From Rufibacter sp. XAAS-G3-1 (GTDB lineage: Bacteria > Bacteroidota > Bacteroidia > Cytophagales > Hymenobacteraceae), in contig NZ_JABFAM010000010.1 of NCBI RefSeq assembly GCF_013623775.1, positions 157,550 to 189,549 on the forward strand: a DNA stretch of 32,000 bases, read 5' to 3'. The notes beneath the pieces were generated by a model. The model did no database searches. It was not told the DNA's origin and saw only the letters and a program-made list of their open reading frames with translations. The position numbers and the translations under genes were made by a program. The stretch's first letter is position 1. The number at the start of each line of letters is the position of its first letter. This document shows, piece by piece, positions 2,891-28,435 of the stretch.

Positions 2891-2905
2891 CTTCATCAGG
2901 AAACG

Positions 2906-4628: not shown

Positions 4629-4641
4629 GAGAGAAAGAGAT

Positions 4642-5226: not shown

Positions 5227-5243
5227 CCTTTTTAGGTTAAGGT

Positions 5244-5292
5244 GAAATAAAAAAAAGACAGCGGAGTCTGTTTAGGAACCTCCGCTGTCTTT
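5244..5292 (-). terminator. Intrinsic terminator/attenuator between nosZ and the accessory genes
   Basis: A 13-bp stem, aaagacagcggag (5254-5266) / ctccgctgtcttt (5280-5292), with a 13-nt loop. On the minus (nos) strand it is followed by an 8-U run (plus-strand A-run 5249-5256). Confidence 0.55.
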
Positions 5293-5307
5293 TTCATTTT
5301 GAAGAAA

Positions 5308-7359: not shown

Positions 7360-7389
7360 GATTAATAGGAGGTTTAATTTTAATATCTA

Positions 7390-7908
7390 CTAGCCCTTGC
7401 TGTCGTTCTGTCTCAGATACTCCAAGATAGCCCTGGCATCTGACTCAGAAACGTTCTGGTTGGTCATCTGGGTGAGGTGCTCAGCCAGCAGCTTTTTAGC
7501 TTCGGGGTCTTTCTTGGTCATCTCCTCTGGGTTTACGATCATGTTCATGATCCACTCCGGCTTGCGGCGCTCTGTCACCCCTGCCAGTCCCGGGCCTACT
7601 ACTTTCTGATCACTCAGTTGGTGGCAGGCGGTACACTTACCGTCAAAGATGGCTTTGCCGCTAGTGGCGAGGGCCTGGTCTATCTCCGCTCCCACCTCTA
7701 CGGTCTTCACGGGGCCTACACCTAATCCGTCATCTTCTGCGGCCTCCTCTGCCGGGGCAGCGGCGGTCTGCTCATCCTGCTCATTCTTGTATTGCTCCGC
7801 ATACCCCTCATTTCCACCAGATGAGCAACTGAAGAGCATAGCACTTCCTATAAAGGTTGCAGCGATTAACATTGGCTTGATTTTCAGATTCAAAAGGTTC
7901 TTTTTCAT
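7390..7908 (-). CDS. Class I c-type cytochrome lipoprotein, probable electron donor to NosZ
   Basis: 172 aa. It has the signal plus Cys AMLFSC, an Ala/Glu-rich linker, and a single heme motif CTACH in a GKCTACHQL...GPGL context. It lies 30 nt upstream of nosZ on the same strand. Confidence 0.85.
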   Translation of the reverse strand: MKKNLLNLKIKPMLIAATFIGSAMLFSCSSGGNEGYAEQYKNEQDEQTAAAPAEEAAEDDGLGVGPVKTVEVGAEIDQALATSGKAIFDGKCTACHQLSDQKVVGPGLAGVTERRKPEWIMNMIVNPEEMTKKDPEAKKLLAEHLTQMTNQNVSESDARAILEYLRQNDSKG

Positions 7909-9657: not shown

Positions 9658-11964
9658 ATGAAATACAAAAAACTCTGGCTAGGCTTTATTGCCGTTATGG
9701 TGGGGTCCTTTGCCGTACTGGGTTATTATGGCTCAGAGATTTACCGCCAGGCCCCGCCCATTCCTGACCAAGTGGTCACCTCCTCGGGCCAAACCGTCTT
9801 CACCGCCCAGGACATCAAAGACGGGCAAAATGTCTGGCAGTCTACCGGGGGGCAGGAGCTGGGTTCCATTTGGGGCCACGGGGCTTACGTAGCCCCAGAC
9901 TGGTCTGCCGACTGGCTGCACAAAGAGGCCATGTTCTTTTTGGACACGTGGGCGCAGCAGGCCAAAGGAACCAAGTATGATGCCCTGGACGAAGAAACCA
10001 AGGCCATGCTACAGGCCCGCCTGCAAAAGCAAATCAGAGCCAACACCTATGACCCCGCCACCGCCACGCTCACTATCTCAGACCTCAGGGCGCAGGCCAT
10101 TGCCGAGGTAAGCAGGCATTATACCGGGCTTTTCATGAACGACCCCGCGCTGGCTGCATACCGTGACGCCTACGCCATGAAAAACTTCACCGTGGAAGAC
10201 CCCGAGCGCATGCGCAAGCTCAACGCGTTCTTTTTCTGGGCCTCCTGGGCGTGCGTGACCGAGCGGCCCGGCCAGGACATCACCTACACCAACAACTGGC
10301 CTGCCGAGGAACTGGTAGGCAACCGCCCCAGCGGCGATCTGCTTATCTGGACGGGGTTTAGCGTGATCGTGCTCATTGCCGGGATTGGCCTGCTGGCCTA
10401 TTACTACGCCTCGCACAAAGAAGAGGAACTGGATCCCAGCCACCTCCCCAAAGAAGACCCGCTGCTGGGCTTGCAGGCCACCCCGTCTATGCGGGCCACG
10501 CTCAAGTATTTCTGGGTTGTGACGGCGCTCATTGTGGTGCAGATTACCCTAGGGGTGGTCACCGCCCACTACGGCGTGGAAGGCCAGGCCCTCTACGGAT
10601 TCCCGCTCGCGGATTCTCTGCCGTACTCCGTTACCCGCACCTGGCACGTGCAGTTGGGCATCTTCTGGATCGCCACCTCGTGGCTGGCCACCGGTCTGTA
10701 TATTGCCCCGGCGGTGTCTGGGTATGAGCCTAAATTCCAGCGGCTGGGCGTGAATTTCCTGTTCATCTGTCTGCTCATTATTGTGGCGGGTTCGCTGGCC
10801 GGGCAATGGTACGGCGTTATGCAGAAACTGGGCTACGGCGAGAACTTCTGGTTTGGGCACCAAGGCTATGAGTACGTAGACATGGGCCGTTTCTGGCAGA
10901 TTTTCCTGCTGGTGGGTCTGTTCCTGTGGCTGTTTTTGATGGTAAGGGCCATCTGGCCGGCGTTCCGGCAGCAAGCCGAAGGACGCCACCTGCTGGGCAT
11001 GTTCCTGATTTCATCTGCCGCCATTGCCTTGTTCTGGGCCGCCGGTCTCATGTGGGGCCAGCACACCAACCTGGCCATTGCCGAGTACTGGCGCTGGTGG
11101 GTGGTGCACCTTTGGGTAGAGGGCTTCTTTGAAGTGTTCGCTACCGTGGTCATTGCCTTCCTGTTCGTGCGCATGGGGCTGCTGCAAACCAAGGTGGCCA
11201 CCGCCACGGTGCTGTTCTCTACCATTATCTTCCTGTTCGGGGGCATTATTGGGACGTTCCACCACCTGTACTTCAGCGGCACGCCCACATCTGTCATGGC
11301 GCTGGGGGCCACCTTTAGCGCGCTGGAAGTGGTGCCGTTGGTGCTTATTGGCAATGAGGCGTACCATAACCTTACCATCAGTAGGCTCACCAAATGGATT
11401 AGGGCGTACAAGTGGCCCATCTACTGTTTCATTGCCGTCGCGTTCTGGAATTTGGTGGGGGCCGGTATCTTCGGATTCGTGATCAACCCGCCCATTGCGC
11501 TGTACTACATGCAGGGGCTAAACACCACGCCCGTGCACGCGCATACGGCCTTGTTTGGGGTGTACGGCGTGCTGGGAATTGGCCTGATGCTGTTCGTCCT
11601 GAAAGGCCTGTCTGGCCGAAGACGCTGGAAAGACGGGGTAATCCGGTTTGCGTTCTGGTCTATCAACATTGGGTTGGCCCTCATGGTCTTGATTAGCGTG
11701 CTGCCCATTGGCCTCCTGCAAACCTGGGCCAGCGTGAAATACGGCCTCTGGTTCGCCCGCTCCATGGAGTTCATGCAAACCGACACCATGGAAACGCTGC
11801 GGTGGCTGCGCGTGATCGGCGACACCATCTTCGCCATTGGCGCGGCGGCGCTGGCGTGGTTTATCATCGGCCTCAAAACCGGCCACTCGCTGCGCGATGA
11901 CCTTGACGTTACCTCAGATTTCAACGTGCCAGACAATGCCTCGCTCCGCGAAAAACTGAAATAA
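9658..11964 (+). CDS. norZ: Quinol-dependent nitric-oxide reductase (qNor, NorZ-type large subunit)
   Basis: 768 aa. It has an N-terminal extension of about 230 aa with one TM helix, fused to a 12+ helix heme-copper oxidase core. Conserved motifs: WWVVHLWVEGF, GTFHHLYFSG and HAHTALFGVYG. Confidence 0.93.
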   Translation: MKYKKLWLGFIAVMVGSFAVLGYYGSEIYRQAPPIPDQVVTSSGQTVFTAQDIKDGQNVWQSTGGQELGSIWGHGAYVAPDWSADWLHKEAMFFLDTWAQQAKGTKYDALDEETKAMLQARLQKQIRANTYDPATATLTISDLRAQAIAEVSRHYTGLFMNDPALAAYRDAYAMKNFTVEDPERMRKLNAFFFWASWACVTERPGQDITYTNNWPAEELVGNRPSGDLLIWTGFSVIVLIAGIGLLAYYYASHKEEELDPSHLPKEDPLLGLQATPSMRATLKYFWVVTALIVVQITLGVVTAHYGVEGQALYGFPLADSLPYSVTRTWHVQLGIFWIATSWLATGLYIAPAVSGYEPKFQRLGVNFLFICLLIIVAGSLAGQWYGVMQKLGYGENFWFGHQGYEYVDMGRFWQIFLLVGLFLWLFLMVRAIWPAFRQQAEGRHLLGMFLISSAAIALFWAAGLMWGQHTNLAIAEYWRWWVVHLWVEGFFEVFATVVIAFLFVRMGLLQTKVATATVLFSTIIFLFGGIIGTFHHLYFSGTPTSVMALGATFSALEVVPLVLIGNEAYHNLTISRLTKWIRAYKWPIYCFIAVAFWNLVGAGIFGFVINPPIALYYMQGLNTTPVHAHTALFGVYGVLGIGLMLFVLKGLSGRRRWKDGVIRFAFWSINIGLALMVLISVLPIGLLQTWASVKYGLWFARSMEFMQTDTMETLRWLRVIGDTIFAIGAAALAWFIIGLKTGHSLRDDLDVTSDFNVPDNASLREKLK

Positions 11965-11983: not shown

Positions 11984-12179
11984 AGGAAAAGAGGTCTGTT
12001 TTAGAGCTTGTTTAAATTTCATCTTTGCGCTGCAAAAGCCCATAGCAAGAACCTGCGTTCACCTTTTTCTCGCACCGTAGCGCTGCTACGCTGCTCAAAA
12101 AACGCTTCCGCAGAACCTTTCTCTGGCCATTTTCGCCGGCAAACCTGAAATTTAAACAAGCTCTTAGGGCTCTTTTCCT
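11984..12179. mobile_element. Second nested-hairpin MITE-like element (about 196 bp) just after qNor
   Basis: Perfect 18-bp inverted repeat: agagcttgtttaaatttc (12003-12020) / gaaatttaaacaagctct (12147-12164). It is extended by aggaaaagag (11984-11993) / ctcttttcct (12170-12179). The interior shares gcaaaagc...agcaagaaYctgYgt with the 2772-2890 element. It abuts a half copy of the dispersed palindrome (12180-12198). Confidence 0.5.
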
Positions 12180-12397
12180 GAAAACAGGCCTAAAACGGCT
12201 AACCTTCCCTCGGCCAAAGCCGGAGAGATCGCCCTCCTGATTGCTTAAGGCGGGGGGATGCCCAACCGCAAGGCCTGGGTGCGGCACCAGATGGAACCGT
12301 TGCGGCGGCTAAGCAACTCCTGCCCCTCTGTAATGAAGTAGAAGCAGTCAGTACCCAGGCATTACCGTCTGCAACCAATAGCTCAACCCTGTTTCTG

Positions 12398-12436
12398 CTG
12401 TTTTAAGCTTTGTTTTCTGAAAACAGCCGGGAAACG
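12398..12436. repeat. Dispersed palindromic repeat, degenerate full copy
   Basis: ctgttttaagctttgtttt-ctg-aaaacagccgggaaacg. Confidence 0.6.
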
Positions 12437-12777: not shown

Positions 12778-13818
12778 ATGCAGCCCACCTCCCGATTGGA
12801 GTTCTTAGATTTTCTACGCTTTATAGCGGCCTTTGCCGTGATGCTCCAGCATACGCTGGAAAGTACCTCTGAGGCTTTCGCGCAGTTCAGCACGCAGTAT
12901 TTTCAGTGTGGGGTGTTTGGCGTCACGCTCTTTTTCCTGACGAGTGGTTTTATTATTCCGGTTTCCTTAGAAAAGGCTCCTTCCCTCAAGGCTTTCTGGC
13001 TGAAACGGGTGTTCCGGCTGCTTCCGTTATATCTCACCAGTCTGTTGGCGACGCTGGCGCTGGTTTCTCTGGGGTGGATGGAAGGAACCCTGCCGTCACT
13101 GACCAGTCTGGTGGCGAACGGGCTGATGTTAGCCAAGTTTCTGGGGCAGCCGCTGGTGCTAGGGCTCTACTGGACGCTTAACCTGGAGATGGTTTTCTAC
13201 CTGCTGGTTTCGGGCTTATTTCTTTTAAAATGGCTGAAGAGAAGTACGCTGCTGGCTTTTTTAGCGCTGGCCTCGGCTTTCCTGGTGGGGGTGGTTGGCA
13301 CCCAGGTGCTGCACTTGTTTGAGAGCGGCTGGGGTCTGTGTTTTCAGTTGGCTTCCATGTTTGTAGGCACCATCTACTTCCGGTACATGGCCGGCCAAGT
13401 CTCCGGCAAAACGTGGACTGCGGTGTTTTTGACGGCTTTATTGGTCTTGGTTTGTATCACGTATTTCAATCTGCACCACCAAAGTACCCCCCATGGACTG
13501 GGCACCAGAAGTTTCTGGCCCGTGACCAATGCGTATTTAGGGGCTTACGTTCTGTTTACTTTCTGTTTTTTCTTGCGGCACCGCTCCTATCCTAAGCCGT
13601 TGGTGTATTTGGGGCTCATCAGCTACTCGCTGTATTTGGTGCAGGCCACCGTGCTGGCCTTGCTTCTTCCGCAAGTCGAGCATCCGTTTTTGGCCTGTTT
13701 TTTAGGAATCAGCATTACGGTTGCCGTTTCGTGCGTTACGTACCGATTTATAGAGAAGCCGTCGGTGCAGTTTGGGCGTTCCTTGCTGCGGAAACCTTCG
13801 GTCACCTTGCCTTCTTAA
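12778..13818 (+). CDS. Acyltransferase family 3 membrane protein
   Basis: From the ATG at 12778 the protein starts MQPTSRLEFLDFLRFIAAFAVMLQH, the typical acyltransferase-3 N-terminus, followed by about 10 hydrophobic helices. The track start (12682, TTG) runs through a terminator and a repeat, so the internal ATG is preferred. Confidence 0.85.
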   Translation: MQPTSRLEFLDFLRFIAAFAVMLQHTLESTSEAFAQFSTQYFQCGVFGVTLFFLTSGFIIPVSLEKAPSLKAFWLKRVFRLLPLYLTSLLATLALVSLGWMEGTLPSLTSLVANGLMLAKFLGQPLVLGLYWTLNLEMVFYLLVSGLFLLKWLKRSTLLAFLALASAFLVGVVGTQVLHLFESGWGLCFQLASMFVGTIYFRYMAGQVSGKTWTAVFLTALLVLVCITYFNLHHQSTPHGLGTRSFWPVTNAYLGAYVLFTFCFFLRHRSYPKPLVYLGLISYSLYLVQATVLALLLPQVEHPFLACFLGISITVAVSCVTYRFIEKPSVQFGRSLLRKPSVTLPS

Positions 13819-13906
13819 GACCTTCTTGGCTCAAGTAAACTATAGGGTTTTAAAGGTGCTTTTGCCAAAACGGGTTGCCCTTATTATCCCGTTCAAGTAT
13901 AATGCC

Positions 13907-13914
13907 TATTTTTG
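13907..13914 (+). promoter_or_regulatory. Candidate -7 box TAttTTTG upstream of ybaB
   Basis: Exact match to TAnnTTTG, 86 nt upstream of the ATG at 14001. No well-spaced -33 element was seen. Confidence 0.25.
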
Positions 13915-14000
13915 GCTTCGGATTACGGGTTATGCCGCAGAGTATCTTCTGTCGTTATTTATCCGTTTACCCTCTGTAGAACTTAAAAAAGAAGAAAACT

Positions 14001-14336
14001 ATGTTTGACATGTTAGGGATGATGAACAAGGTGAAGGAGATGCAGGCCAAAATGAAAGAGGCTCAGGATAACCTTCGGCACATACAGGTTTCGGCCGAGG
14101 CGGGCGGCGGCATGGTGAAAGCCACGGCCAGCGGCGACCGCCGGTTGCTCAAGGTAGAGTTTGACGAGACGCTCATGAACCCCGAGGACAAGGAAATGCT
14201 GGCCGACTTGGTGGTGGCCGCCGTGAACAAGGCCATGGACGAAGCCGGGGAGCGCGGCAAAGAAGAAATCAAGAAACAAACCGAAGGCATGCTGCCCAAC
14301 ATTCCGGGCTTAGATCTGAGCAACTTTGGTTTATAA
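14001..14336 (+). CDS. ybaB: YbaB/EbfC family nucleoid-associated DNA-binding protein
   Basis: 111 aa. The sequence MMNKVKEMQAKMKEAQ...VSAEAGGGMVKATASGDRRLLKVEFDETLMNPEDKEMLADLVVAAVNKA matches the YbaB fold pattern. Confidence 0.9.
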   Translation: MFDMLGMMNKVKEMQAKMKEAQDNLRHIQVSAEAGGGMVKATASGDRRLLKVEFDETLMNPEDKEMLADLVVAAVNKAMDEAGERGKEEIKKQTEGMLPNIPGLDLSNFGL

Positions 14337-15378
14337 TTCCTATTCAGTGGCGGTGGTGATTCTTAACTGGAATGGCCGCCGCTGGTTAGAGCAGTTTTTG
14401 CCCTCGGTTCTCCAAAACAGCCCCGAAACGGAAGTAATAGTGGCCGACAATGCCTCTACCGATGACTCCGTTGCTTTTCTGCGGCAACACTATCCGCAGG
14501 TGCGGCTCATCCAACTGGAGGAGAACCTGGGGTTTTGCGAAGGCTACAACCAGGCGCTCCGGCAGGTAGACGCTACGTATTACGTGCTCCTCAACTCAGA
14601 CGTGGAAGTCACGCTTAACTGGCTGGTGCCCATGGCAGATTTGCTGGAAAAGAACCCGCAGATTGCCGCCTGTCAGCCCAAAATCAAATCCTTTCACCAA
14701 CGCAGCCATTTTGAGTACGCCGGGGCCGCCGGCGGATTTCTGGACGCCTACGGCTATCCTTTCTGCCGGGGCCGCTTGTTTGACACCCTGGAAGAAGACC
14801 AAGGCCAGTATGATGACGTACGTCCGGTTTTCTGGGCCACGGGTGCCTGCCTCTTCATCAGAGCCAAGGCGTATTGGGAGGCGGGCGGACTGGAGCCGAA
14901 GTTTTTCGCGCACATGGAAGAGATAGACCTGTGCTGGCGGTTGCAGAACCTGGGGTACCAGATTTATTACCAGGGCTTCAGCACCGTCTACCACGTGGGC
15001 GGCGGCACGCTACCCAAGGCAAACCCCAGAAAAACGTTTCTTAACTTCAGGAACGGCGCCGCCCTATTGTATAAAAACCTGGCCGACGAAGAAGTTACCA
15101 GAATCCTGTACACCAGATTGGTATTAGACGGCGTGGCTGCGGCCCAGTTTTTCCTGAAAGGCGAATGGCGAGAGGTACAGGCCATCTACCAAGCGCACCG
15201 CGCCTTTTTTGCCGATAAAAGCTTCTGGAAAGAAAAACGCAAAGAGACGGAAAGCAAAAAGAAAACGGCGGAGCTGACCGGTTGGAGTCCGCAGAGCGTG
15301 GTATGGCAGTATTTTGTGAAAGGGAAAAAGAAATTCAGCGCCTTAGATGTCCCAGACGGTGCTGCGCTCCCGGCGTAA
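14326..15378 (+). CDS. Glycosyltransferase family 2
   Basis: It has VAVVILNWNG, VADNASTDDS and LLNSDVEV (DxD-like) motifs. The start is uncertain: TTG at 14326 overlaps ybaB by 11 nt, and GTG at 14347 is the alternative. Confidence 0.85.
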   Translation: MVYNSYSVAVVILNWNGRRWLEQFLPSVLQNSPETEVIVADNASTDDSVAFLRQHYPQVRLIQLEENLGFCEGYNQALRQVDATYYVLLNSDVEVTLNWLVPMADLLEKNPQIAACQPKIKSFHQRSHFEYAGAAGGFLDAYGYPFCRGRLFDTLEEDQGQYDDVRPVFWATGACLFIRAKAYWEAGGLEPKFFAHMEEIDLCWRLQNLGYQIYYQGFSTVYHVGGGTLPKANPRKTFLNFRNGAALLYKNLADEEVTRILYTRLVLDGVAAAQFFLKGEWREVQAIYQAHRAFFADKSFWKEKRKETESKKKTAELTGWSPQSVVWQYFVKGKKKFSALDVPDGAALPA

Positions 15379-15561
15379 GCTTTTGCTTATGTTCAGCCAG
15401 AAAGCCATGACCAGGTACACCAATACCGGCGACCCGAACGTTAAAAAAGACAGGTAGATAAAAGACAAGCGGATGCTGCTGGTGGCAAAGCCTAACCTTT
15501 CCCCAAGTTTGGTGCACACCCCAAAGGCTTGGCTCTCCAGGAAATACTGAATATTCTTCAT
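15343..15561 (-). CDS. PspC-domain membrane protein
   Basis: 72 aa. GVCTKLGERLGFATSSIRLSFIYLSFLTFGSPVLVYLVMAFWL matches the PspC domain pattern (GVCxGLaxyfgid...Rl.Fvl). Its 3' end overlaps the convergent GT2 gene by 36 nt. Confidence 0.7.
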   Translation of the reverse strand: MKNIQYFLESQAFGVCTKLGERLGFATSSIRLSFIYLSFLTFGSPVLVYLVMAFWLNISKSLRRERSTVWDI

Positions 15562-19618: not shown

Positions 19619-20332
19619 TCAGGCTAAAGTAAGACGGGCGATGTAATGGTCGTCTTCTTCCCGGAGGAGCAACTCGGCGGTGAAACCCGCTTCTTCGGCG
19701 TATTGCTGGAGCAGGTCGAAATCTATAAAAAGCCAGGGAAAAGGTTCGCTTCTCTCCTGTCCAAACTCCATCATGTAGGTAAGTTCGCCGTAGTAGGCAC
19801 CGTTCAAATCCAGCAGCACAGAACCGTCTTCCTCTTCATAAAGGTACAGAATGTCTGAAGACTCTAACAGGATCTGTCCGCTGGGGGCGAGCCATTTTTT
19901 ACAGGTGGCAAGAAACCGCGGCAAACCGTCCAGGGTGCCGGCCAGGCCTATCCCGTTCATGAGCAGCAACAGCGTGTCATGGGGGGTTGGCGAAAGGGTG
20001 AAAAAATCGCCGGGCAAGACGTTTTTAACGCCCCGGGCTTTCTGCACCTCCACGGCCCTGGCCGATATTTCCAACGCGGTGACTTCTACCCCTTTTTCCT
20101 GCAGGGCCAAGGCATGGGAACCGGCCCCGGCGCCAATGTCCAGCACCCGTCCGTGGGCGGCAGAGAGGGCAACCTGTTCCCGTTCGGGCATTTCTGAGAA
20201 AGCCCTGAACAGGTAGGCGACCGGTAGTTCATCGGCTTCCATCTGGTCTGAGTAAACCGTGATGGCGGCCTCTTTGTTTCCTTCCCAAAAGGCTTTGATG
20301 GCGCCTCCCATTGGGTCTGGTGTCTCTAACAT
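19619..20332 (-). CDS. Class I SAM-dependent methyltransferase
   Basis: Motif I is VLDIGAGAGSHALAL, with an acidic residue after beta-2 (VTALE). The ATG at 20332 (MLETPDPMGG...) is preferred over the longer track start at 20365. Confidence 0.8.
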   Translation of the reverse strand: MLETPDPMGGAIKAFWEGNKEAAITVYSDQMEADELPVAYLFRAFSEMPEREQVALSAAHGRVLDIGAGAGSHALALQEKGVEVTALEISARAVEVQKARGVKNVLPGDFFTLSPTPHDTLLLLMNGIGLAGTLDGLPRFLATCKKWLAPSGQILLESSDILYLYEEEDGSVLLDLNGAYYGELTYMMEFGQERSEPFPWLFIDFDLLQQYAEEAGFTAELLLREEDDHYIARLTLA

Positions 20333-20634
20333 GTTGCGGTTTTTTTTGAAAAGCCAAAAATACACATTCTGGGGCAGCCCTGTTCAACAATTGAACTTCT
20401 AAGCTTACTAACGGGAATGGGTGATAATTCTCTGGCTTTACCAAGGTATGGGGAACATTCATCCAAAAGAGGCCATAAATAGAAATAATCCAAAGAAATA
20501 TTAATCTAACTTTCAGGTAAAGCAGCACTCAAACTAGCTGATTTGGCCTTGTTTAGCTTAGCTGGGGCCGTTTCTTATTTTACCCGGCACAGGTAAACCG
20601 AAGCGCCTTCTTAGTGGATAAAGCCCAGAATCCT

Positions 20635-20642
20635 TATCTTTG
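20635..20642 (+). promoter_or_regulatory. Candidate -7 box TAtcTTTG upstream of the CHASE3 kinase gene
   Basis: Exact match to TAnnTTTG, 46 nt upstream of the ATG at 20689, in a comparatively AT-rich divergent intergenic region. Confidence 0.3.
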
Positions 20643-20688
20643 AGCTTTATGCTAGATTCCTCGTCCTCTTTGCACAGAGATCAAACCT

Positions 20689-22197
20689 ATGAAACTAATC
20701 TCCACCATCTATACCGTCATCGGGTTGATATTGGTTATGTTCTGCATTGTCACTATGGGATATATCCAACAAACCCGCAAGGTCAAGAAAAGCATTGAAG
20801 ATGTTTTGTACACTTCCAGCATTATACGGGAGGCCGAACGCGCGCAGAAGTTGCTCCTAGATCTGGAGACGGGTTTGCGCGGCTATCTGCTGACCGGCCA
20901 AAAACCTTTTCTGAAACCTTATCTGGAGGGACAGATAGATTTTGAACGCAGCATCAACCACCTTGATTCTCTGACCAAAGCCTCCCCGGCACAAAACAAG
21001 CAGATTCAACTCATCCGCCATGATGCCCAATTATGGCTGGGAACGTTTGCCCTGCCATTGCTGGAAAACAAAACCGACGTTCAGGTAAGCGCCCAGAACA
21101 GAACATTGTACGATTCCCTGTTCACGGCCACAGCGCAACAGGGCACGGGCAAGAGCATCATGGACAGGGCCCGCCAGCGTTTTGACCAGATCAAGCAAGA
21201 GGAGGAGCGCATCAAAAAAGACCGGTTAGCGGAGATGAATGCGTCTCTTTTCAGGACAAACGAAATTGCCGTGGGGCTTACGTTCCTCTCTGTGCTGGCG
21301 GGAAGTTTCATGGCCTATTTATTGGGAAACACCATTAAACGGCGGTTCAGGCGCATGAACAACCTGGCCCACAGCATTGCCCAGGGAGATTACAGCGTTT
21401 CTTTGGTAGACAGGCACAATGATGAGATCAGCAGCCTGACCAGATCACTGAACAAGATGGCCAGACAGTTGCAGAACAGTTTCAACCACCTCACCAAAAC
21501 CAACAACGAACTAGACCAGTTTGCCTACGTGGTTTCGCATGACCTGAAAGCCCCCCTGCGGGCCATCAACAACCTGGCCGAGTGGATTGCCGAAGACCTG
21601 GTCACCGATGAGCCCGACATTAAGAAGAACCTGTCTATCTTGCGCAGCCGGGTGCATAGAATGGAAAACCTGATCAACGGAATTCTGGCCTATTCTAAGG
21701 TAGGAAAGCAGGTATTGCCCTCCACCAGTTTCTCTGCGCAGGAAGTGGTAAAGGAAACCCTGGAGAACCTGTCCCCGCCTGACACGTTTCGCATCCACAC
21801 CCCGGCCGTTCTGCCCACCATTACCGGTGAACGCACCCTTTTCTATCAGGTTATGTCAAATCTGCTCAGCAATGCGTTCAAGTACCACCACACCCAGCAC
21901 GGCAACATTGAGATCAGAGCTAAGGTATTGCCAGATTTCTATCAGTTTGAAGTGCAGGATGACGGGCCGGGAATTCCCAAGGAATACCAGGCAAAAGTCT
22001 TCGGGATTTTTCAAACCATGGAAGCCCGCGACGTGAAAGAAAGTACCGGCGTGGGGCTTTCCATTGTCAAAAAGATTGTGGAAGAAAAAGGCGGCCAGGT
22101 CTGGATTGAATCTGAGAAAGGGCAAGGCACCACGTTCCTGTTTACCTGGCCCAAGGTTCCGGTTACAAGTCTCACTTCAATTCCCTTACAGCCATGA
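20689..22197 (+). CDS. Sensor histidine kinase, CHASE3-TM-HAMP-HisKA-HATPase
   Basis: An N-terminal TM helix is followed by the CHASE3 signature LETGLRGYLLTGQKPFLKPY, a second TM helix and a HAMP-like linker. H-box FAYVVSHDLKAPLR, N-box NAFKYH, G-boxes DDGPGI and GVGLSIV. Confidence 0.9.
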   Translation: MKLISTIYTVIGLILVMFCIVTMGYIQQTRKVKKSIEDVLYTSSIIREAERAQKLLLDLETGLRGYLLTGQKPFLKPYLEGQIDFERSINHLDSLTKASPAQNKQIQLIRHDAQLWLGTFALPLLENKTDVQVSAQNRTLYDSLFTATAQQGTGKSIMDRARQRFDQIKQEEERIKKDRLAEMNASLFRTNEIAVGLTFLSVLAGSFMAYLLGNTIKRRFRRMNNLAHSIAQGDYSVSLVDRHNDEISSLTRSLNKMARQLQNSFNHLTKTNNELDQFAYVVSHDLKAPLRAINNLAEWIAEDLVTDEPDIKKNLSILRSRVHRMENLINGILAYSKVGKQVLPSTSFSAQEVVKETLENLSPPDTFRIHTPAVLPTITGERTLFYQVMSNLLSNAFKYHHTQHGNIEIRAKVLPDFYQFEVQDDGPGIPKEYQAKVFGIFQTMEARDVKESTGVGLSIVKKIVEEKGGQVWIESEKGQGTTFLFTWPKVPVTSLTSIPLQP

Positions 22198-22901
22198 TGC
22201 CCCCTGAGCAGACCTGTGAACAGCAACTGGAAGCCCTCAGAAAGGAATTTGAGGAATTCGCCTACATTGTATCGCATGATTTGAAAGCGCCGCTGCGGGC
22301 CATCAACAATCTCTCGGCCTGGATTGGCGAAGACTTGGGCGAAAACCAGGAGCCCGAGGTTCAGAACAATCTGCAATTGCTCCAGAACCGCACCCAGCGC
22401 ATGGAACGCATGATCAACGGGTTACTGGAATACTCCAGAGTTTCCAGGCAAGATCTGGAAGTGCAGGAAGTGTCCGTAGAGGCAATGGTACAGCGGCTGG
22501 CGGGTGCCTTCCCACAAAGCCAAACCCTGGAAGTCCACCCTTCGCACTTGCCCACCTTCAAAACCTACGCGAAGAAACTGGAGACGGTGTTTCAGCAGTT
22601 ACTCCAGAATGCCGTTACGTTCAATGAGCAGGAAACCCCAGAGGCCTGGATAGAAGCCCAGGAGCAGGCAGACGCCTTTGTTTTCAAAGTGAGGGACAAC
22701 GGGATAGGCATCCCCGCCGAGGCACAGCCAAAAGTGTTCAACATCTTTTTCACGGTGCAGCCCAAAGACCGGCACGAAACCCTGGGGGTTGGTTTGGCCA
22801 TTACCCGTAAGATCATTCAGTTTGTGGGCGGTTCCATCTCCGTGCAGTCTACGCCGGGGCATGGCACTGATTTTATGTTCACCTGGCCCAAAACAATATA
22901 G
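22194..22901 (+). CDS. Soluble histidine kinase core without any sensor domain (HisKA-HATPase only)
   Basis: 235 aa. The start ATG overlaps the upstream stop (ATGA at 22194-22197). H-box FAYIVSHDLKAPLRAINNL is nearly identical to the upstream kinase. It also has DNGIGI and LGVGLAI. There is no TM helix and no PAS/GAF domain. Confidence 0.85.
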   Translation: MMPPEQTCEQQLEALRKEFEEFAYIVSHDLKAPLRAINNLSAWIGEDLGENQEPEVQNNLQLLQNRTQRMERMINGLLEYSRVSRQDLEVQEVSVEAMVQRLAGAFPQSQTLEVHPSHLPTFKTYAKKLETVFQQLLQNAVTFNEQETPEAWIEAQEQADAFVFKVRDNGIGIPAEAQPKVFNIFFTVQPKDRHETLGVGLAITRKIIQFVGGSISVQSTPGHGTDFMFTWPKTI

Positions 22902-23013
22902 CGGCTCCCGGCCATTTATACGTATAAGAAATTCATTTAAAAAATTCCCCGGCAAACGAACAAGCTCCCCATGGGAAGAAGAGCGTTGGCCTGTTATCTG
23001 GTTAGAAGCAAAC

Positions 23014-23427
23014 ATGGAAGAAAGAGAAGTAACCATTTTACTGGTGGAAGACGACGAGGTAGACATCATGAATGTGCAGCGCGCCTTCAAAAAAAACAAT
23101 ATCACCAATCCGCTGCTTGTTGCCCATAATGGGCTAGAGGCGTTGGAAATGCTTAGATCAGGCGTTATTCCCATGTCCCCCATCATTATTCTGGACATCA
23201 ACATGCCCAAGATGAACGGCATAGAGTTTTTGCAGGAACTCAGGAGTGACCCAGACCTGAACCGGATCAGCGTCTTTGTGATGACTACCTCCAACGAAGA
23301 CAGTGACAAAATCAATGCCTACAACCTCAATGTGGCGGGTTATATTCTCAAGCCGCTGTCCTTTGAGAAATTCCTGACCTCGGTAGCCACCTTAGATAAG
23401 TACTGGAAACTGTGCGTTAGGCCCTGA
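23014..23427 (+). CDS. Single-domain response regulator (REC only)
   Basis: 137 aa from the ATG at 23014. It has ILLVEDDEVD, the phospho-acceptor context IILDINMP, TTS and K in YILKP. There is no output domain. The track ORF start at 22789 is a spurious extension. Confidence 0.9.
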   Translation: MEEREVTILLVEDDEVDIMNVQRAFKKNNITNPLLVAHNGLEALEMLRSGVIPMSPIIILDINMPKMNGIEFLQELRSDPDLNRISVFVMTTSNEDSDKINAYNLNVAGYILKPLSFEKFLTSVATLDKYWKLCVRP

Positions 23428-23490
23428 AAAGAGCCTGAAAACTTCTTTTTTTAACATTCCCCTGCCATTCATCTTCTATTAAATATTACA

Positions 23491-23919
23491 TTGAAAACAA
23501 AGCAAGCCCATATTCTCCTTGTGGAGGATGATCCGCAGGATGTTGCCTCTACCAAACGTGCCTTTCTGTCGCAGGGCATTGATAACCCCGTCCATGTGGC
23601 CCCTTCCGGCAAAGTGGCGCTGGACATGCTGCAAGGGAGAGGAAGACCGGCCCTGGATCCAATTCCCCGCATTATCTTACTGGACTTGGATCTGCCCGAA
23701 ATGAGCGGGCTGGATTTTCTGACGGCCCTCCGCAAAGATCCTTTGCTCAAAGCCTGCAGTGTGTTTGTCATTACCGGCCAGAGCACCCCAAAGGATCTTT
23801 TACAGGCCTATGACCTGAATGTGGCCGGTTATATTGTAAAGCCCATTCAGTACACGTCTTTCGTAGATATCATTGCCACGCTTAACTCTTTCTGGAATTT
23901 AATTGAACTCCCCAACTAA
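23491..23919 (+). CDS. Single-domain response regulator (REC only), TTG start
   Basis: 142 aa with ILLVEDDPQD, ILLDLDLPEMSG and YIVKP. The only in-frame start before the conserved DD is TTG at 23491. Confidence 0.85.
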   Translation: MKTKQAHILLVEDDPQDVASTKRAFLSQGIDNPVHVAPSGKVALDMLQGRGRPALDPIPRIILLDLDLPEMSGLDFLTALRKDPLLKACSVFVITGQSTPKDLLQAYDLNVAGYIVKPIQYTSFVDIIATLNSFWNLIELPN

Positions 23920-26263
23920 CCTCGCCCCTACAGAACCCGCGGTAAAGCTTCTCATTGTGGATGACGATGAGGTAGACCGGATGATTATACAACGGTCACT
24001 GAGAACGGCCCGGGTAGAAGCTTCCATCAAAACCGCCGCCCTGGGAACTGATGCGCTGACTGCCTTGGAGCAGGAAACGTTTGATTTCATTTTCATTGAC
24101 TTCATGCTGCCCGACATGAACGGCCTGGAACTTCTGCAGGAGATACGGGAAAAGGGTATTACCACCCCGGTATTGATTGTGACCTCCCAGGGCGATGAGC
24201 GCATAGCCGTGGAAGCCATTAAAACCGGGGCCTCAGACTATCTGCCCAAGACCTTGCTCACCCCCGAAGGCATCTCCAAAAGCATCAGGTCGGCCATCCG
24301 GCTGCACAGAATAGAACAGGAGCGGCTGCAGACCCAGGAACAACTGGCCAACACCCAGAAGCAACTGGAAACCGTTATCAACGGCGCCCCCATTATCCTC
24401 TGGGCCACTGACCAGAACGGCATCTTCACCATGACGCGCGGCAAAGGGGTTTACCTTATTGGCAAAGAAGAGCATGAATCTGTAGGCCTTTCCATTTTTG
24501 ACGTTTACCAGGACTACCCCAGTATTACCAAATGCGTCCACCACACGTTAAAGGGGCACAAAGCCATGTGCACGGTGAACATCAAAGGCGTCTGGTTTGA
24601 CTGCCTTTTTCTGCCGTTAAGAAGTGCCACCAATGAGATGAACGGCATTATTGGCGTGTGCTACAACATATCTGAGCGCATCCAGATTGAAGAGGAGCTG
24701 AAAAGGGCCAAAGACGAAGCCCTGAGCATGGCGCAGGTGAAAGAGCAGTTTTTGGCCAACATGAGCCACGAGATCAGAACGCCCATGAACGGTATTCTGG
24801 GTTTAACCGAAATTTTGGCAAAAACCCCCTTAAACGAAGAACAAAAAGAATACCTGCAGGGCATCCATACCTCGGCCAATAACCTGATGGTGATCATCAA
24901 TGATCTGCTTGATTTCTCAAAGATAGAGGCCGGTAAAATCACGTTTGAGGTCATCCCCTTCAACGTACAGCAATTGGTCAAACAACTGCTGGATGTGCTG
25001 GAGATAAAAGCCAGGGAACGGCAAAACACCTTGAAGATTCTCTTTGACCAAGACATTCCGCCCTTGGTGGAAGGCGATCCGTTCCGGCTGGGGCAGATCC
25101 TCAACAACCTTCTGGGAAACGCCATCAAGTTCACCCAGCAAGGCACCGTGCGGCTGAATGTGGAGGTAATTGCCCAGGCAGAAAACCAGTTGCAGCTTGA
25201 ATTCACCGTGCAGGATACCGGCATTGGCATCCCCGAAGAGAAACTGGATACCATCTTTGAGAAATTCACCCAGGGCAGCAATGACACCACCCGCAAGTTT
25301 GGCGGTACCGGGCTGGGCCTTTCCATTGCCAAAGAACTGGTGGAGGCGCAGGGCGGCCATATTACGGTGGAAAGCAAAGTCAACCAGGGCAGCACCTTCC
25401 GTTTTGTGCTTCCTTTTCAGAAAATAGACGCAAAACCAGACCAAACCCTCCCCTCCCCCCCGCTCCCAAGCCCGCCCCTCCACGTACTCCGGAACGCCCG
25501 GGTCTTACTGGCCGAAGATAATCTGGTGAACCAGATGCTGGTATCCAAGGTACTGCGCGACCAGGAGGTGGAAGTGACCATGGTCAATGACGGAAAGGAA
25601 GCCCTAGACCTGCTGGCCCAGGAACCGTTTGACCTTATCTTGATGGACATGCAGATGCCCGAGGTAGACGGATATGAGGCCATGCAGCACATACGCGAGC
25701 ACATGCCCGCCCATAAACACATTCCCATCATTGCCTTAACGGCGCACGCCTCTCAGGGCGAGTTCAACCGATGCCTGGCCTCCGGGGCCAATTCCTATAT
25801 CTCCAAACCGTTCAAAGAAGAGGAACTGCTCCAGGAGATTGCCACTTTGCTTCAGGCCAAAGCCCGGGTAAAACCTACCCCCTCGCCAGTTTCCCCGCCA
25901 AGGGAAGTAGAGATAGACCTTACCTATCTGGAAAGCTTCGCGAACGGAAACACTGAGTTCATGCGCGACATTCTCAAGCTGTTCATTGAGCAGACGCCGC
26001 GTCTGGTGCAGGAGTTAGCCAAGGCCGTTTCGCGCTTTAATTGGGCCGAGGCCCGAACCATTGCCCACAAGATCAGGCCCTCCATCTCGTTGGTGGGCAT
26101 CCAGCAATTGGAGGACTTAAACAACACCATTGAACACTCTGCCCAGAACCGTACCCATTTAGATCAACTACCGGCACTAGTAAACCAGTTGGTCACTTTG
26201 GTTGATCGCTCCATTGAACAGTTAAAGCACGAACTGGAGCATCTGCAAGGCAAACCGGTATAA
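23903..26263 (+). CDS. Hybrid sensor kinase REC-PAS-HisKA-HATPase-REC-HPt
   Basis: 786 aa. N-terminal REC (LLIVDDDEVD...FIDFMLPDMNG); PAS-like segment (ILWATDQNGIFT); H-box SHEIRTPMNGILG; DTGIGI and GGTGLGLSI; second REC (VLLAEDN...ILMDMQMPEVDG...ISKP); C-terminal HPt (IAHKIRPSISLVG). It has a TTG start and overlaps the previous gene by 17 nt. Confidence 0.9.
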   Translation: MNSPTNLAPTEPAVKLLIVDDDEVDRMIIQRSLRTARVEASIKTAALGTDALTALEQETFDFIFIDFMLPDMNGLELLQEIREKGITTPVLIVTSQGDERIAVEAIKTGASDYLPKTLLTPEGISKSIRSAIRLHRIEQERLQTQEQLANTQKQLETVINGAPIILWATDQNGIFTMTRGKGVYLIGKEEHESVGLSIFDVYQDYPSITKCVHHTLKGHKAMCTVNIKGVWFDCLFLPLRSATNEMNGIIGVCYNISERIQIEEELKRAKDEALSMAQVKEQFLANMSHEIRTPMNGILGLTEILAKTPLNEEQKEYLQGIHTSANNLMVIINDLLDFSKIEAGKITFEVIPFNVQQLVKQLLDVLEIKARERQNTLKILFDQDIPPLVEGDPFRLGQILNNLLGNAIKFTQQGTVRLNVEVIAQAENQLQLEFTVQDTGIGIPEEKLDTIFEKFTQGSNDTTRKFGGTGLGLSIAKELVEAQGGHITVESKVNQGSTFRFVLPFQKIDAKPDQTLPSPPLPSPPLHVLRNARVLLAEDNLVNQMLVSKVLRDQEVEVTMVNDGKEALDLLAQEPFDLILMDMQMPEVDGYEAMQHIREHMPAHKHIPIIALTAHASQGEFNRCLASGANSYISKPFKEEELLQEIATLLQAKARVKPTPSPVSPPREVEIDLTYLESFANGNTEFMRDILKLFIEQTPRLVQELAKAVSRFNWAEARTIAHKIRPSISLVGIQQLEDLNNTIEHSAQNRTHLDQLPALVNQLVTLVDRSIEQLKHELEHLQGKPV

Positions 26264-26273
26264 AATAAATCTG

Positions 26274-26318
26274 CTTGGTTTTCAGGCCGATTTTAAGAAA
26301 TTAGCCTAAAAACCAAGC
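26274..26318. repeat. Variant copy of the dispersed palindrome
   Basis: gcttggttttcaggccgatttt-aag-aaattagcctaaaaaccaagc. The outer 15 bp are complementary with one mismatch. It starts 11 nt after the stop at 26263. Confidence 0.65.
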
Positions 26319-26335
26319 CAATAAAAACCCACGCC

Positions 26336-26857
26336 ATGAACACGCAACTTCAAACCCTTTTTCAGCAGCTGGAAAAACAGCGGGAAAAATTCAGTTCATG
26401 GGTGGCGAACGCTCCGGCTTCTGCGCAGCACCAGCAACCTGCCCCAGACCAATGGTCGGCGGCGCAGGTGCTGTACCATTTAGCCCAGGTAGACAAACAG
26501 GTGGTAGCGGCCTTGGAGAAGCGAGTGGCCAGCGGCAAACCCCTGCGGCCGCTTCGCTGGAGTACCCGTTTCAGGTCTGTTTTACTGAATCTAGCCCTAA
26601 AACTGCCTATCAGATTCAAAGCCCCGGCCGCCGTGCGTGACGTTCCAGACCAGGTGCAGGTGGCCCAGGTCATTACCCAGTGGCAAGAGACAAGGGCGCG
26701 GCTTCATGCGTTTCTCGCGTCTTTTCCAGAAGGTCAGCTGAACAGAGAGGTCTTTTTCCATCCCCGTTCCGGGATGATCACCCTGCCCCAAACGCTCCGC
26801 TTTCTGCTAGAGCACACCCACCACCACCGAAGACAGATGCGGAGGCTTCTTTCCTAG
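26336..26857 (+). CDS. DinB-family (DinB_2) metal-dependent four-helix-bundle protein
   Basis: 173 aa with WSAAQVLYHL, FFHPRSGMITL and LEHTHHHRRQM, the His-triad pattern typical of the DinB superfamily. Confidence 0.8.
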   Translation: MNTQLQTLFQQLEKQREKFSSWVANAPASAQHQQPAPDQWSAAQVLYHLAQVDKQVVAALEKRVASGKPLRPLRWSTRFRSVLLNLALKLPIRFKAPAAVRDVPDQVQVAQVITQWQETRARLHAFLASFPEGQLNREVFFHPRSGMITLPQTLRFLLEHTHHHRRQMRRLLS

Positions 26858-26929
26858 CTCTCCTTGCGTATCTTTGCAGCCCTTCTGCCGGGAAACGGCG
26901 TACATACTCATTCAACCGTAAACTTGCCC

Positions 26930-27517: not shown

Positions 27518-28435
27518 ATGGCTGAGTTCACGGAAAGATACATCAACCCGTTCACCGACTACGGTTTCAAGAAGCTGTTCGGGGAAGAGCCCAACAAGGA
27601 TTTGCTGCTGGACTTCCTGAACGTGCTCCTGCAGGAGGAACAGGGCGAAATCATAGACTTAACGTACCTGAAGAGCGAACACCTGGGAACGGGCGAACTG
27701 GACAGGAAAGCCATCTTCGACCTGTACTGCGAGAACGAGAGAGGCGAGAAGTTCATCGTGGAGCTGCAGAAGACCAAGCAGAACTTCTTCAAGGACAGGA
27801 CGGTCTACTACTCCACCTTCCCCATCAGGGAGCAGGCCAAGCGGGCCGACTGGAACTACGAGCTGAAGGCGGTCTACACCATCGCCATCCTGGACTTCGT
27901 GTTCGACGAGGACAAGCAAGACCCCGCCAAGTTCCGGTATGACATCAAACTCTCTGACACCGAAACAAAAGAGGTGTTCTACGACAAACTCACCTTCATC
28001 TACCTGGAGATGCCCAAGTTCAACAAGACCATTGAGGAGCTGGAGACCAGGTTTGACAAGTGGCTGTACGTGATCCGGAACCTGAACCGGCTGGACAAGG
28101 TGCCCGAGAAGCTGCGGGAACGGGTCTTCGAGAAGCTGTTTGAGACGGCCGAGATAGCCAAATTCACCCCAGAACAGATCCGCTCCTACGAGGACAGCCT
28201 GAAGTATTACCGCGACATGAAGAACTCGCTGGACACCGCCAGGGAAGAAGGATTGTTGGAGGGAATAGAGAAGGGAATAGAGAAGGGAATAGAAAAAGGA
28301 ATAGAAGAAGGGAAGATGGTGGTAGCCGTTGAAATGATAAAGGCGAAGGAGCCTCTTGAAAAGATAATGCGGTTCACAGGTCTGTCACGTGAGCAAGTGG
28401 AGGAACTGAAAACAAACCAGCGTAACCACTCCTGA
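27518..28435 (+). CDS. Rpn/YhgA-like PD-(D/E)XK recombination-promoting nuclease / putative transposase family protein
   Basis: 305 aa. The N-terminus YINPFTDYGFKKLFGEE and the core IFDLYCENERGEKFIVELQK (D...E.Q/K) match the Bacteroidetes PDDEXK putative-transposase family. The C-terminal tail carries (GIEK)3GIEE. Confidence 0.8.
   Translation: MAEFTERYINPFTDYGFKKLFGEEPNKDLLLDFLNVLLQEEQGEIIDLTYLKSEHLGTGELDRKAIFDLYCENERGEKFIVELQKTKQNFFKDRTVYYSTFPIREQAKRADWNYELKAVYTIAILDFVFDEDKQDPAKFRYDIKLSDTETKEVFYDKLTFIYLEMPKFNKTIEELETRFDKWLYVIRNLNRLDKVPEKLRERVFEKLFETAEIAKFTPEQIRSYEDSLKYYRDMKNSLDTAREEGLLEGIEKGIEKGIEKGIEEGKMVVAVEMIKAKEPLEKIMRFTGLSREQVEELKTNQRNHS
28262..28309 (+). repeat. In-frame 12-bp tandem repeat x4 (GIEK GIEK GIEK GIEE) inside the Rpn-like gene
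   Basis: ggaatagagaag ggaatagagaag ggaatagaaaaa ggaatagaagaa. The repeat is in phase with the CDS: (28262-27518) is divisible by 3. Confidence 0.9.

Follow-up and report, generated by a model that had tools for sequence, protein, structure and literature searches.

Phytochrome kinases and small single-domain receivers are paired in Cph1-Rcp1, CphA-RcpA and BphP-BphR, and in most of these pairs it is not known what the small receiver acts on downstream. Unorthodox kinases such as ArcB, BvgS and TorS possess a kinase-REC-HPt tail, referred to below as the ArcB-type layout. Two larger arrangements have been studied. In Rhodopseudomonas palustris, the Lhf system (bphP2-bphP3-lhfD-lhfE plus lhfA) contains two tandem phytochrome kinases that phosphorylate LhfD, which serves as a phosphate sink, and a REC-kinase, LhfE, that acts downstream (PMC6879726). 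In Fremyella diplosiphon, dpxABC encodes a kinase, a small receiver and a hybrid kinase, which are co-transcribed and all affect the same phenotype; the hybrid kinase is PAS-variable, and the small receiver is unusually conserved, with at least 73% identity (PMC13492139). The subject of this study is a five-gene cluster at positions 20689-26263 of a 32,000-nucleotide (nt) stretch of Rufibacter sp. XAAS-G3-1 (contig NZ_JABFAM010000010.1, positions 157,550 to 189,549 of the forward strand; hereafter the window), encoding a CHASE3 sensor kinase (HK1), a core-only kinase (HK2), two single-domain receivers (REC1 and REC2) and a receiver-first hybrid histidine kinase (HHK). As judged from its relatives, this cluster is an elaborated form of a widespread three-gene module and not an isolated oddity. 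Output-less clusters of phytochrome-class kinases and small Rcp-type receivers are common, and the cluster bears on the role that such small receivers have.

With the phytochrome pairs the cluster shares the SHDLxxPLR class of DHp domain and the class of receiver with a C-terminal dimerisation tail. However, neither a PAS-GAF-PHY module nor a cyanobacteriochrome GAF module was found in it by Pfam or in the AlphaFold2 (AF2) model of HK2, and because the photosensory module is missing, the cluster is not a phytochrome system in spite of the common transmitter and receiver class; it also has two kinases and two receivers, versus one of each in the pairs, plus a linked hybrid kinase. The likeness to Lhf lies in two tandem kinases of the same class followed by an Rcp-type single-domain receiver and then a cytoplasmic REC-kinase, and the R. 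palustris receiver RPA3017/RphyB (4zyl) is matched by REC1. A redox-active cysteine is part of the Lhf logic, where it lies in the REC-kinase (LhfE Cys262); the candidate here lies in the minimal kinase. The Lhf kinases are bilin photoreceptors, whereas those of the cluster are a CHASE3 kinase and a core-only kinase; Lhf has a linked REC-HTH output, LhfA, for which no counterpart was found among the scanned open reading frames (ORFs) of the window or of the flanks of the syntenic loci; and the cluster has an extra REC-HPt tail on the hybrid kinase as well as a second small receiver. With dpxABC it shares the order sensor kinase, single-domain receiver, PAS hybrid kinase, without an output gene and with HK2 and REC2 inserted here, a likeness of layout; cyanobacterial loci with the plain dpxABC-like triad were recovered. 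However, DpxA is a cyanobacteriochrome (GAF) light sensor whereas the sensor in the window is CHASE3, and dpxABC has neither a second core-only kinase nor a second receiver, nor has a REC-HPt tail been reported for it.

The ArcB-type kinases, whose tail HHK resembles, differ from it in being membrane sensors without an N-terminal receiver and in having known partner regulators. RedCDEF of Myxococcus xanthus is likewise output-less and joins two kinase-type and two receiver-type proteins, one of them a soluble sensor-less kinase-type protein, in one circuit (PMC2755868). There, however, RedE is a phosphatase that does not autophosphorylate, whereas HK2, from its sequence, keeps every kinase motif; RedD is a dual receiver, no hybrid kinase or HPt is present, and the sequences are unrelated beyond domain families. 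Precedent for signalling from kinase to kinase is given by CheA3 of Rhodospirillum centenum, which regulates the kinase CheS3 by phosphorylating a receiver domain at its N-terminus (PMC3868531), although CheA3 is a CheA-class kinase within a chemotaxis-like cluster. Both RedCDEF and the CheA3-to-CheS3 step are taken here as functional analogies only.

The cluster is set apart from all these systems by a Cys-bearing core-only kinase, a second receiver, a REC-HPt tail, a CHASE3 input and the lack of a linked output. Its new point is the core-only minimal kinase whose sole distinctive residue is a conserved Cys; otherwise it is an expanded version of a known kinase/small-receiver/receiver-kinase operon. 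It reveals no new signalling chemistry and overturns nothing in two-component signalling, and two points deserve to be followed: the triad, found across phyla, in which the effector of the third gene is exchangeable, and the minimal kinase with its single cysteine.

A three-gene core with an exchangeable third gene

Related loci were obtained by a genome scan seeded with an alignment of short kinases, followed by domain-wise BLAST of all ORFs; the distribution counts given in this study are lower bounds and are biased. Eighty loci were recovered (denoted by L and a number), about 40 of which had a phytochrome-class kinase directly followed by a REC1-like receiver, with or without HK2, and about 30 continued with a receiver-first gene. 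The triad loci recovered came from many cyanobacteria and from some proteobacteria, Nitrospinota, Aminicenantes and Victivallales. In the recovered loci, the receiver of the third gene, when compared with the four receivers of the window, always matched the N-terminal REC of HHK best, and a PAS domain often followed it at the same position.

The C-terminal part of the third gene product was of several kinds: GGDEF-EAL in proteobacterial loci (L017 and L055), GGDEF in a Victivallales locus (L026), a plain kinase in cyanobacteria (L018, L023 and L037), kinase-REC in a Sphingobacteriia metagenome-assembled genome (MAG; L016), kinase-REC-HPt, confirmed by Pfam, in Flavobacterium gillisiae (L006), and a kinase-REC-HPt layout in Chryseosolibacter (L011), in which the HPt was a weak blastp match not seen in Pfam. 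Homologues of the REC-PAS module in a protein search were mostly REC-kinases, with some REC-GGDEF proteins; this search, which returned 36 mostly short proteins and missed known full-length orthologues, is used here only qualitatively. The simplest reading of the sequences is that REC-PAS would be a receiver module controlling whichever effector follows it, in the window a kinase equipped with an internal His-Asp-His relay. A concrete wiring would follow for the module, which is common to Bacteroidota, cyanobacteria and proteobacteria: the sensor kinase would signal to the REC-PAS-effector, and the small receiver would form a branch or a sink.

Gene organization and domain content

Five ORFs were confirmed on the + strand within 20689-26263 (coordinates are those of the window): HK1 at 20689-22197 (502 amino acids (aa), ATG start), HK2 at 22194-22901 (235 aa, ATG start), REC1 at 23014-23427 (137 aa, ATG start), REC2 at 23491-23919 (142 aa, TTG start) and HHK at 23903-26263 (786 aa, TTG start). 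The junction of HK1 and HK2, agccATGAtgccc, is a 4-nt ATGA overlap; gaps of 112 nt and 63 nt separate HK2 from REC1 and REC1 from REC2, respectively, and REC2 and HHK overlap by 17 nt. Three kinases, four receiver domains and one HPt were detected by Pfam. The acidic pair, the acceptor Asp, the Thr and the Lys are kept in all four receivers, as are the H, N, G1, F and G2 motifs in all three kinases; none of the kinases, the receivers or the HPt has lost a phospho-acceptor or catalytic residue. No DNA-binding, GGDEF/EAL, CheB/CheW or other effector family was found in the five proteins by Pfam at E ≤ 0.01, and the residual unassigned stretches are transmembrane segments and short Pro-rich linkers, none of which is long enough for an effector domain. 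HK1 alone has hydrophobic segments, two in number, none being seen in HK2, REC1, REC2 or HHK.

An earlier note on this DNA had described the same cluster, and its coordinates, ATGA overlap, 112- and 63-bp gaps and 17-bp overlap match the ORF check; its domain census was correct by Pfam, with the PAS of HHK, which lies below the cut-off, as the single soft point. The lack of an output domain, which that note had set beforehand as one of the checks on which its account could be refuted, was borne out, as Pfam found none in the cluster or among the scanned ORFs of the 32-kb window. Its assignment of the kinases and small receivers to the phytochrome type is in line with the PDB matches, HK2 being nearest to bacteriophytochromes and REC1 to phytochrome response regulators, and its remark that the hybrid kinase has a different H-box is also right, since this reads SHEIRTPMN and HHK is unrelated to HK1 and HK2 from H to H+12.

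By Pfam, HK1 consists of CHASE3 (residues 38-181, E 9e-24), HAMP (211-262), HisKA (275-338) and HATPase_c (382-489). The two hydrophobic segments, residues 3-21 and 193-211, bracket CHASE3 and give the order TM-CHASE3-TM-HAMP-HisKA-HATPase_c (TM, transmembrane segment); because they flank the CHASE3 sensor, this is predicted to be periplasmic. The phospho-accepting His is H284, in the H-box SHDLKAPLR. Residues H to H+7 (HDLKAPLR) were invariant in 9 of 9 syntenic orthologues, whatever the sensor domain, and the sensor of the first kinase differed by group: CHASE3-HAMP in Hymenobacteraceae, GAF plus several PAS domains in Flavobacterium, and GAF in a Cyclobacteriaceae MAG. From this comparison, CHASE3 is one of several interchangeable inputs at the first-kinase position. 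A literature search on CHASE3 systems in Bacteroidota found nothing relevant.

Synteny in Bacteroidota

The complete five-gene order was found in Rufibacter glacialis and at least four Flavobacterium genomes, and a four-gene order without REC2 in Pontibacter oryzae, at least two Adhaeribacter species and the Cyclobacteriaceae MAG; fragments of the order occurred in Chitinophagales and Flavobacteriales MAGs. At least three Bacteroidota families thus keep the order sensor-HK, short-HK, REC1, (REC2), REC-x-HK-REC-(HPt), in agreement with what the earlier note had proposed to check by synteny, and the HK1-HK2 junction was no longer than 30 nt in all 8 syntenic loci. Flanking genes are common within Hymenobacteraceae and different in Flavobacterium. 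Since the flanks change while the five genes stay linked, the linkage appears to be selected and not passively inherited. The flanks in Hymenobacteraceae contain housekeeping neighbours only (methyltransferase, DinB_2, deaminase and Ffh), and those in Flavobacterium contain PEP synthase/PPDK-like, CheY-like REC and SulP-STAS genes; clustering of the flanking ORFs revealed no conserved output gene in the syntenic loci.

These data bear on the possibility that the five genes are independent two-component parts that merely lie side by side without cross-talk. Bacteroidota genomes are rich in hybrid kinases, so that neighbours of this kind can arise by chance. However, the order is kept across at least three families with differing flanks, neighbouring genes overlap or lie very close together, the core triad is met again in other phyla, and the two studied homologous arrangements, Lhf and dpxABC, each work as a single pathway; such chance adjacency is therefore regarded as most improbable.

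Between the window and R. glacialis, the region is collinear from TPR/OmpA to Ffh except for a PDDEXK_2 gene, and the flanking housekeeping proteins are 98% identical. The signalling proteins diverge much faster than their neighbours: identity was 60% for CHASE3, 64% for HK2, 65% for the PAS region and 66% for the C-terminal REC, in contrast to 98% for Ffh and the transketolase C-terminal subunit and 91% for REC1. In Flavobacterium, a third CheY-like receiver of 119-120 aa follows HHK in L004 (12183-12542), L006 (12134-12496) and L007 (12134-12496); L003 has a similar REC-like ORF (12052-12414) and a further PAS-kinase-REC hybrid (12856-15426). A SulP-STAS transporter lies downstream in L006 and L007 (12898-14430; Pfam on L006).

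HK2, a core-only kinase with a conserved cysteine

By Pfam, HK2 contains HisKA (residues 21-83) and HATPase_c (126-234) and nothing else. Its AF2 model (mean predicted local distance difference test score 90.8) comprises helices 8-51 and 54-82, forming the DHp hairpin, plus the CA domain, and nothing more. The core is 42% identical to that of HK1, with H to H+12 identical and alpha2 similar, and the best PDB matches are the full-length bacteriophytochromes 9ys3 and 8uph (E about 9e-28). Rufibacter (best named match 66%), Sabulibacter, Nibribacter, Pontibacter and Adhaeribacter have homologues of about 235 aa. In a neighbour-joining tree without bootstrap, the Bacteroidota HK2 sequences formed one clade apart from all sensor-kinase cores, which points to an old duplication and not to repeated truncation. 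Core-only short kinases were also observed in Nitrospinota/Aminicenantes clusters with the same component types in another gene order (L027 7782-8693, L080 4523-5242 and L012 7959-8699); these seem to stand apart from the Bacteroidota HK2 clade, and the residue 20 positions before the phospho-accepting His is Ser in L080 and Leu in L012, not Cys.

The catalytic residues of HK2 bear on the suggestion that HK2 is not an input kinase but a RedE-like phosphatase or phosphoryl acceptor, or else modulates HK1 as its obligate partner in a heterodimer. In favour of this, HK2 lacks a sensor domain and its translation is coupled to that of HK1, its near-identical DHp alpha1 would permit pairing with HK1, and in the output-less four-gene RedCDEF system a kinase-like protein acts as a phosphatase (PMC2755868). 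However, residues H28, N139, D168, G172, G198 and G200 were invariant across 66 homologues, G170 was kept in at least 90%, and the Asp at H+1 and F182/F185 were invariant or nearly so; with all autokinase motifs thus retained, HK2 is unlike RedE, which cannot autophosphorylate. The residue at H+4 also bears on the matter. Thr, Asn or Glu at this position governs HisKA phosphatase activity, and the substitution E536A weakens the phosphatase activity of DrBphP (PMC8292422). HHK has Thr at H+4; HK1 and HK2 carry Ala, the type tied to weak phosphatase activity, and the HK2 proteins of other Hymenobacteraceae share this Ala with that of the window. A phosphatase or partner role is accordingly considered quite unlikely. 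HK1 and HK2, with Ala at H+4, may be poor phosphatases, which would offer a rationale for a sink receiver.

The phospho-accepting residue of HK2 is His28 (codon 22275-22277, + strand), and its sole Cys, Cys8 (22215-22217, + strand), lies exactly 20 residues before it (H-20). A Cys at H-20 was present in 43 of 55 short orthologue clusters (78%), in which none of the four positions N-terminal to H-20 had a residue exceeding 24%; none of 50 longer PAS- or HAMP-bearing homologues had it. Among the syntenic loci, it was found in 8 of 9 HK2 proteins and in none of the HK1 or hybrid kinases. Positions -20, -16, -13, -9, -6 and -2 form a 4-3-4-3-4 hydrophobic stripe, the a/d core of the DHp helix, and in the AF2 model helix alpha1 begins with Cys8. 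Where a parallel dimeric helix begins, a core-stripe Cys is favourably positioned to form a disulfide between the subunits, and RegB and ArcB are precedents for kinases regulated by redox-active cysteines. LhfE Cys262 is a further redox-active cysteine that regulates a kinase (PMC6879726).

Conservation of the H-20 Cys in 78% of the short orthologue clusters, together with its position on the DHp core stripe, suggests a thiol switch, and Cys8 is tentatively put forward as such a thiol/redox switch. HK2 would then possibly be a minimal kinase of DHp and CA only, whose whole sensor is one cysteine; reversible oxidation of Cys8 or a Cys8-Cys8' disulfide cross-link in the dimer would set its output, so that the thiol-redox state of the cytoplasm would be fed into a phytochrome-type relay together with a periplasmic CHASE3 cue and a PAS cue. 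With the same reservation, HK2 could be the founding example of a family conserved across Cytophagia, Flavobacteriia and Chitinophagia. An intermolecular disulfide between HK2 Cys8 and REC1 Cys134 was also considered, as both cysteines are missing in L065, and was rejected because the REC1 Cys is equally common where no short kinase is present.

Single-domain receivers REC1 and REC2

REC1 and REC2 contain only Response_reg by Pfam. REC1 is an Rcp-type receiver with the C-terminal tail F..F...V..L..YW.LC. Its best PDB matches are 6xvu, 5te9, 8avv, 1i3c/1jlk, 1k66, 1k68, 5brj and 4zyl, among them the bacteriophytochrome-response regulator fusion 8avv, Rcp1 (1i3c/1jlk), RcpB (1k66), RcpA (1k68) and RPA3017/RphyB (4zyl), and the alignments take in the C-terminal ...YW motif. 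No other component of the cluster is as conserved as REC1. By domain-wise BLAST, identities of REC1, HK2 and REC2 were 91%, 64% and 71% to R. glacialis and 71-75%, 42-43% and 36-41% to Flavobacterium; in Pontibacter/Adhaeribacter, REC1 was 79% and HK2 39-49% identical and REC2 was absent, and in cyanobacteria REC1 was about 60% identical, with no HK2 or REC2 identified. As regards the tail, the motif W-x-L-C-E contains Cys134 (codon 23413-23415); this Cys occurs in about 70% of REC1-like proteins of Bacteroidota and cyanobacteria, being otherwise Ser, Asn or Ile, and does not track the presence of a short kinase. REC2-type paralogues have Ile or Val at this position.

It is conceivable from these features that REC1 is itself the output, a CheY-like protein that, once phosphorylated, binds and regulates a target outside the two-component family, for example an enzyme or machine, with HHK as a parallel input or as a phosphatase or sink for REC1. 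REC1 is far more conserved than its kinases, as is typical of a hub with several partners, and its tail W-x-L-C-E is conserved; among cyanobacterial orders, homologues of DpxB similarly share at least 73% identity (PMC13492139), and the cluster is without any output domain. Against this, R. palustris can dispense with LhfD but needs LhfE, whose place is downstream of the phytochromes (PMC6879726), and the proteobacterial third gene bears a true effector, GGDEF-EAL, behind the same REC-PAS, which marks that gene as the output arm. An output role of REC1 is therefore held to be rather unlikely.

REC2 is a paralogue of REC1 (44% identity) and is a canonical receiver in the window. In R. glacialis (L001 9284-9712), Ser replaces the acceptor Asp (IILLSLDLP versus IILLDLDLP in the window), and in the Flavobacterium copies (L003 9149-9574, L004 9164-9589 and L006 9170-9592) neither the acidic DD pair nor the MP motif is left (LLVDSC..., INEEG); Pontibacter, Adhaeribacter and the Cyclobacteriaceae MAG have no REC2 gene. 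The degenerate copies of these relatives may be pseudo-receivers, and by this comparison REC2 appears to be an evolutionarily unstable accessory and not an equal partner of REC1.

The hybrid kinase HHK

The domains of HHK by Pfam are REC (residues ~9-135), a PAS-like region (~155-255), HisKA (280-344), HATPase_c (391-506), REC (534-646) and Hpt (689-774; 27.6 bits versus a cut-off of 24.6). The PAS is below the Pfam cut-off (19.4 versus 22.6 bits, E 1.1e-3), spanning model positions 2-110 of 113; in orthologues it is above the cut-off in Adhaeribacter terreus (27.6 bits) and strong in A. aerolatus. The TTG at 23903 is the sole start codon upstream of strand beta1. The protein has the ArcB-type chain of HisKA-HATPase_c, REC and HPt with the conserved His, Asp and His, namely H289 (SHEIRTPMN), the phospho-accepting Asp of the REC (LILMDMQMP) and, in the HPt, the His of AHKIRPSISLVG. 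Orthologues with the HHK layout were present in at least eight syntenic loci; in the Pontibacter orthologue, no HPt was matched by blastp.

The HPt allows a linear relay of the Spo0F/RcaF style to be envisaged, in which HK1 and HK2 would phosphorylate REC1 and REC2, these would pass the phosphate to the HPt of HHK, converging there with the kinase-REC input of HHK itself, and a distal regulator would follow. Spo0F and RcaF are small receivers that feed HPt-like domains, and an HPt with the conserved His stands beside free single-domain receivers in the clusters of the window, Rufibacter, Adhaeribacter and Flavobacterium. However, the Rcp-type receiver stays with REC-X genes that have no HPt, namely the cyanobacterial REC-kinases, the proteobacterial REC-PAS-GGDEF-EAL and the kinase-REC of L016, so that this partnership cannot depend on an HPt. 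The Pontibacter orthologue shows no HPt match, and in HHK the HPt directly follows its own C-terminal REC, the obvious donor. A linear relay of this type thus seems unlikely.

Receiver helix alpha1 is the main kinase-recognition surface. In all nine genomes compared, alpha1 of the N-terminal REC of HHK matched that of REC1 at 4-7 of 14 positions, and alpha1 of the C-terminal REC at just 1-3 of 14. This likeness, modest but consistent, hints at a kinase shared by REC1 and the N-terminal REC.

Proposed phosphorelay

The five genes are proposed to constitute one operon-like unit, a multi-input kinase cascade and not three separate two-component systems, a proposal to which we give about an even chance. 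That they form one unit is suggested by the ATGA overlap, the gaps of at most 112 nt, the order kept while the flanks change, and the occurrence of the sole TAnnTTTG ahead of HK1. HK1 would read a periplasmic cue via CHASE3. HK2, a cytoplasmic paralogue that would be translationally coupled to HK1, would add a second input, possibly thiol/redox state via Cys8. Because the two kinases have the same DHp recognition helix, they would converge on common receivers, REC1 and the N-terminal REC-PAS of HHK. HK1 and REC1 are regarded as a probable cognate pair, since they are adjacent even without HK2, the DHp and REC1 are highly conserved, and the nearest structures are those of phytochrome kinase/response regulator pairs. 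REC1 may act as a phosphate sink, buffer or branch, perhaps with further partners, and REC2 as a dispensable, fast-decaying accessory. Phosphorylation of the N-terminal REC, possibly together with a PAS cue, would gate the autokinase of HHK, whose internal His-Asp-His relay would end at the HPt, and from there the signal would pass to an unlinked response regulator. The sequences establish the anatomy of genes and domains, the integrity of the catalytic residues, the synteny, the exchange of sensor and effector modules and the conservation of the cysteine; each phosphotransfer step, the redox role of Cys8 and the distal regulator are inferred. All findings are compatible with the view of the earlier note that the cluster is a branched or convergent relay with its target elsewhere.

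Several observations weigh against parts of this cascade. A Cys on the coiled-coil core stripe could be purely structural, and HK2 of the syntenic orthologue L065 has Pro at H-20, so that the argument for a thiol switch is not universal; nor is that for poor phosphatases, as Flavobacterium HK2 has Thr at H+4. REC1 keeps about 60% identity from one phylum to another, and so high a conservation points to a larger number of partners than a passive sink requires. The alpha1 likeness of REC1 and the N-terminal REC is modest (36-50%), and alpha1 of the N-terminal REC varies between genera whereas the HK1 DHp does not, unlike a strictly co-evolving pair; nine genomes with an invariant HK1 DHp give no power for covariation of DHp and receiver alpha1. 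Finally, the terminal response regulator with an output domain is hypothetical, none being present within the 32-kb window.

Expression signals and surrounding genes

TAnnTTTG is the Bacteroidota -7 promoter consensus. A candidate -7 motif of this type, TATCTTTG, is located at 20635..20642 on the + strand, 46 nt before the ATG of HK1; it is the sole + strand match within 20635-26868, the internal gaps having none. Over the whole window the motif is not enriched (20 found versus 16.6 expected from shuffles), and the arrangement lends weak support to a single promoter ahead of HK1. A scan for sigma-70 promoters and intrinsic terminators gave counts not exceeding the shuffle expectation, with no + strand terminator in the intergenic gaps, a scan that is uninformative in that Bacteroidota promoters differ from the sigma-70 model. 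No riboswitch or RNA leader was found in 20200-26500 by Rfam at E ≤ 1; a Fibro-purF match was dismissed as chance-level (19.3 bits versus a 60-bit cut-off).

Among the scanned ORFs of the 32-kb window, no receiver-plus-output protein was present. The upstream neighbour of the cluster is a methyltransferase gene on the opposite strand, and downstream lie genes for DinB_2, a cytidine/tRNA-type deaminase, a PDDEXK_2 transposase-like protein, DUF1264 and Ffh. The DinB_2/MST-like gene (26336-26857, + strand) begins 72 nt after HHK and belongs to a family that includes thiol S-transferases; R. glacialis has the gene in the same place (63% identity), which is not so for Adhaeribacter or Pontibacter, and any tie to the thiol switch would be pure speculation. 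About 9-19 kb from the kinase cluster are genes for the end of denitrification: an ABC-2 permease, an ABC ATPase, NosD, NosL, a 194-aa ORF, a NosZ-like protein (nos_propeller) and a cytochrome c are encoded at 1167-7908 on the - strand, and a NorB-like nitric-oxide reductase, whose N-terminal part resembles a cytochrome c domain, at 9658-11964 on the + strand. The PDDEXK_2 gene (27518-28435, + strand, E 2e-79), between the deaminase and DUF1264 genes, is the sole gene of the stretch without a counterpart in the R. glacialis locus L001 and, being missing from this otherwise collinear locus, is probably a recent insertion.

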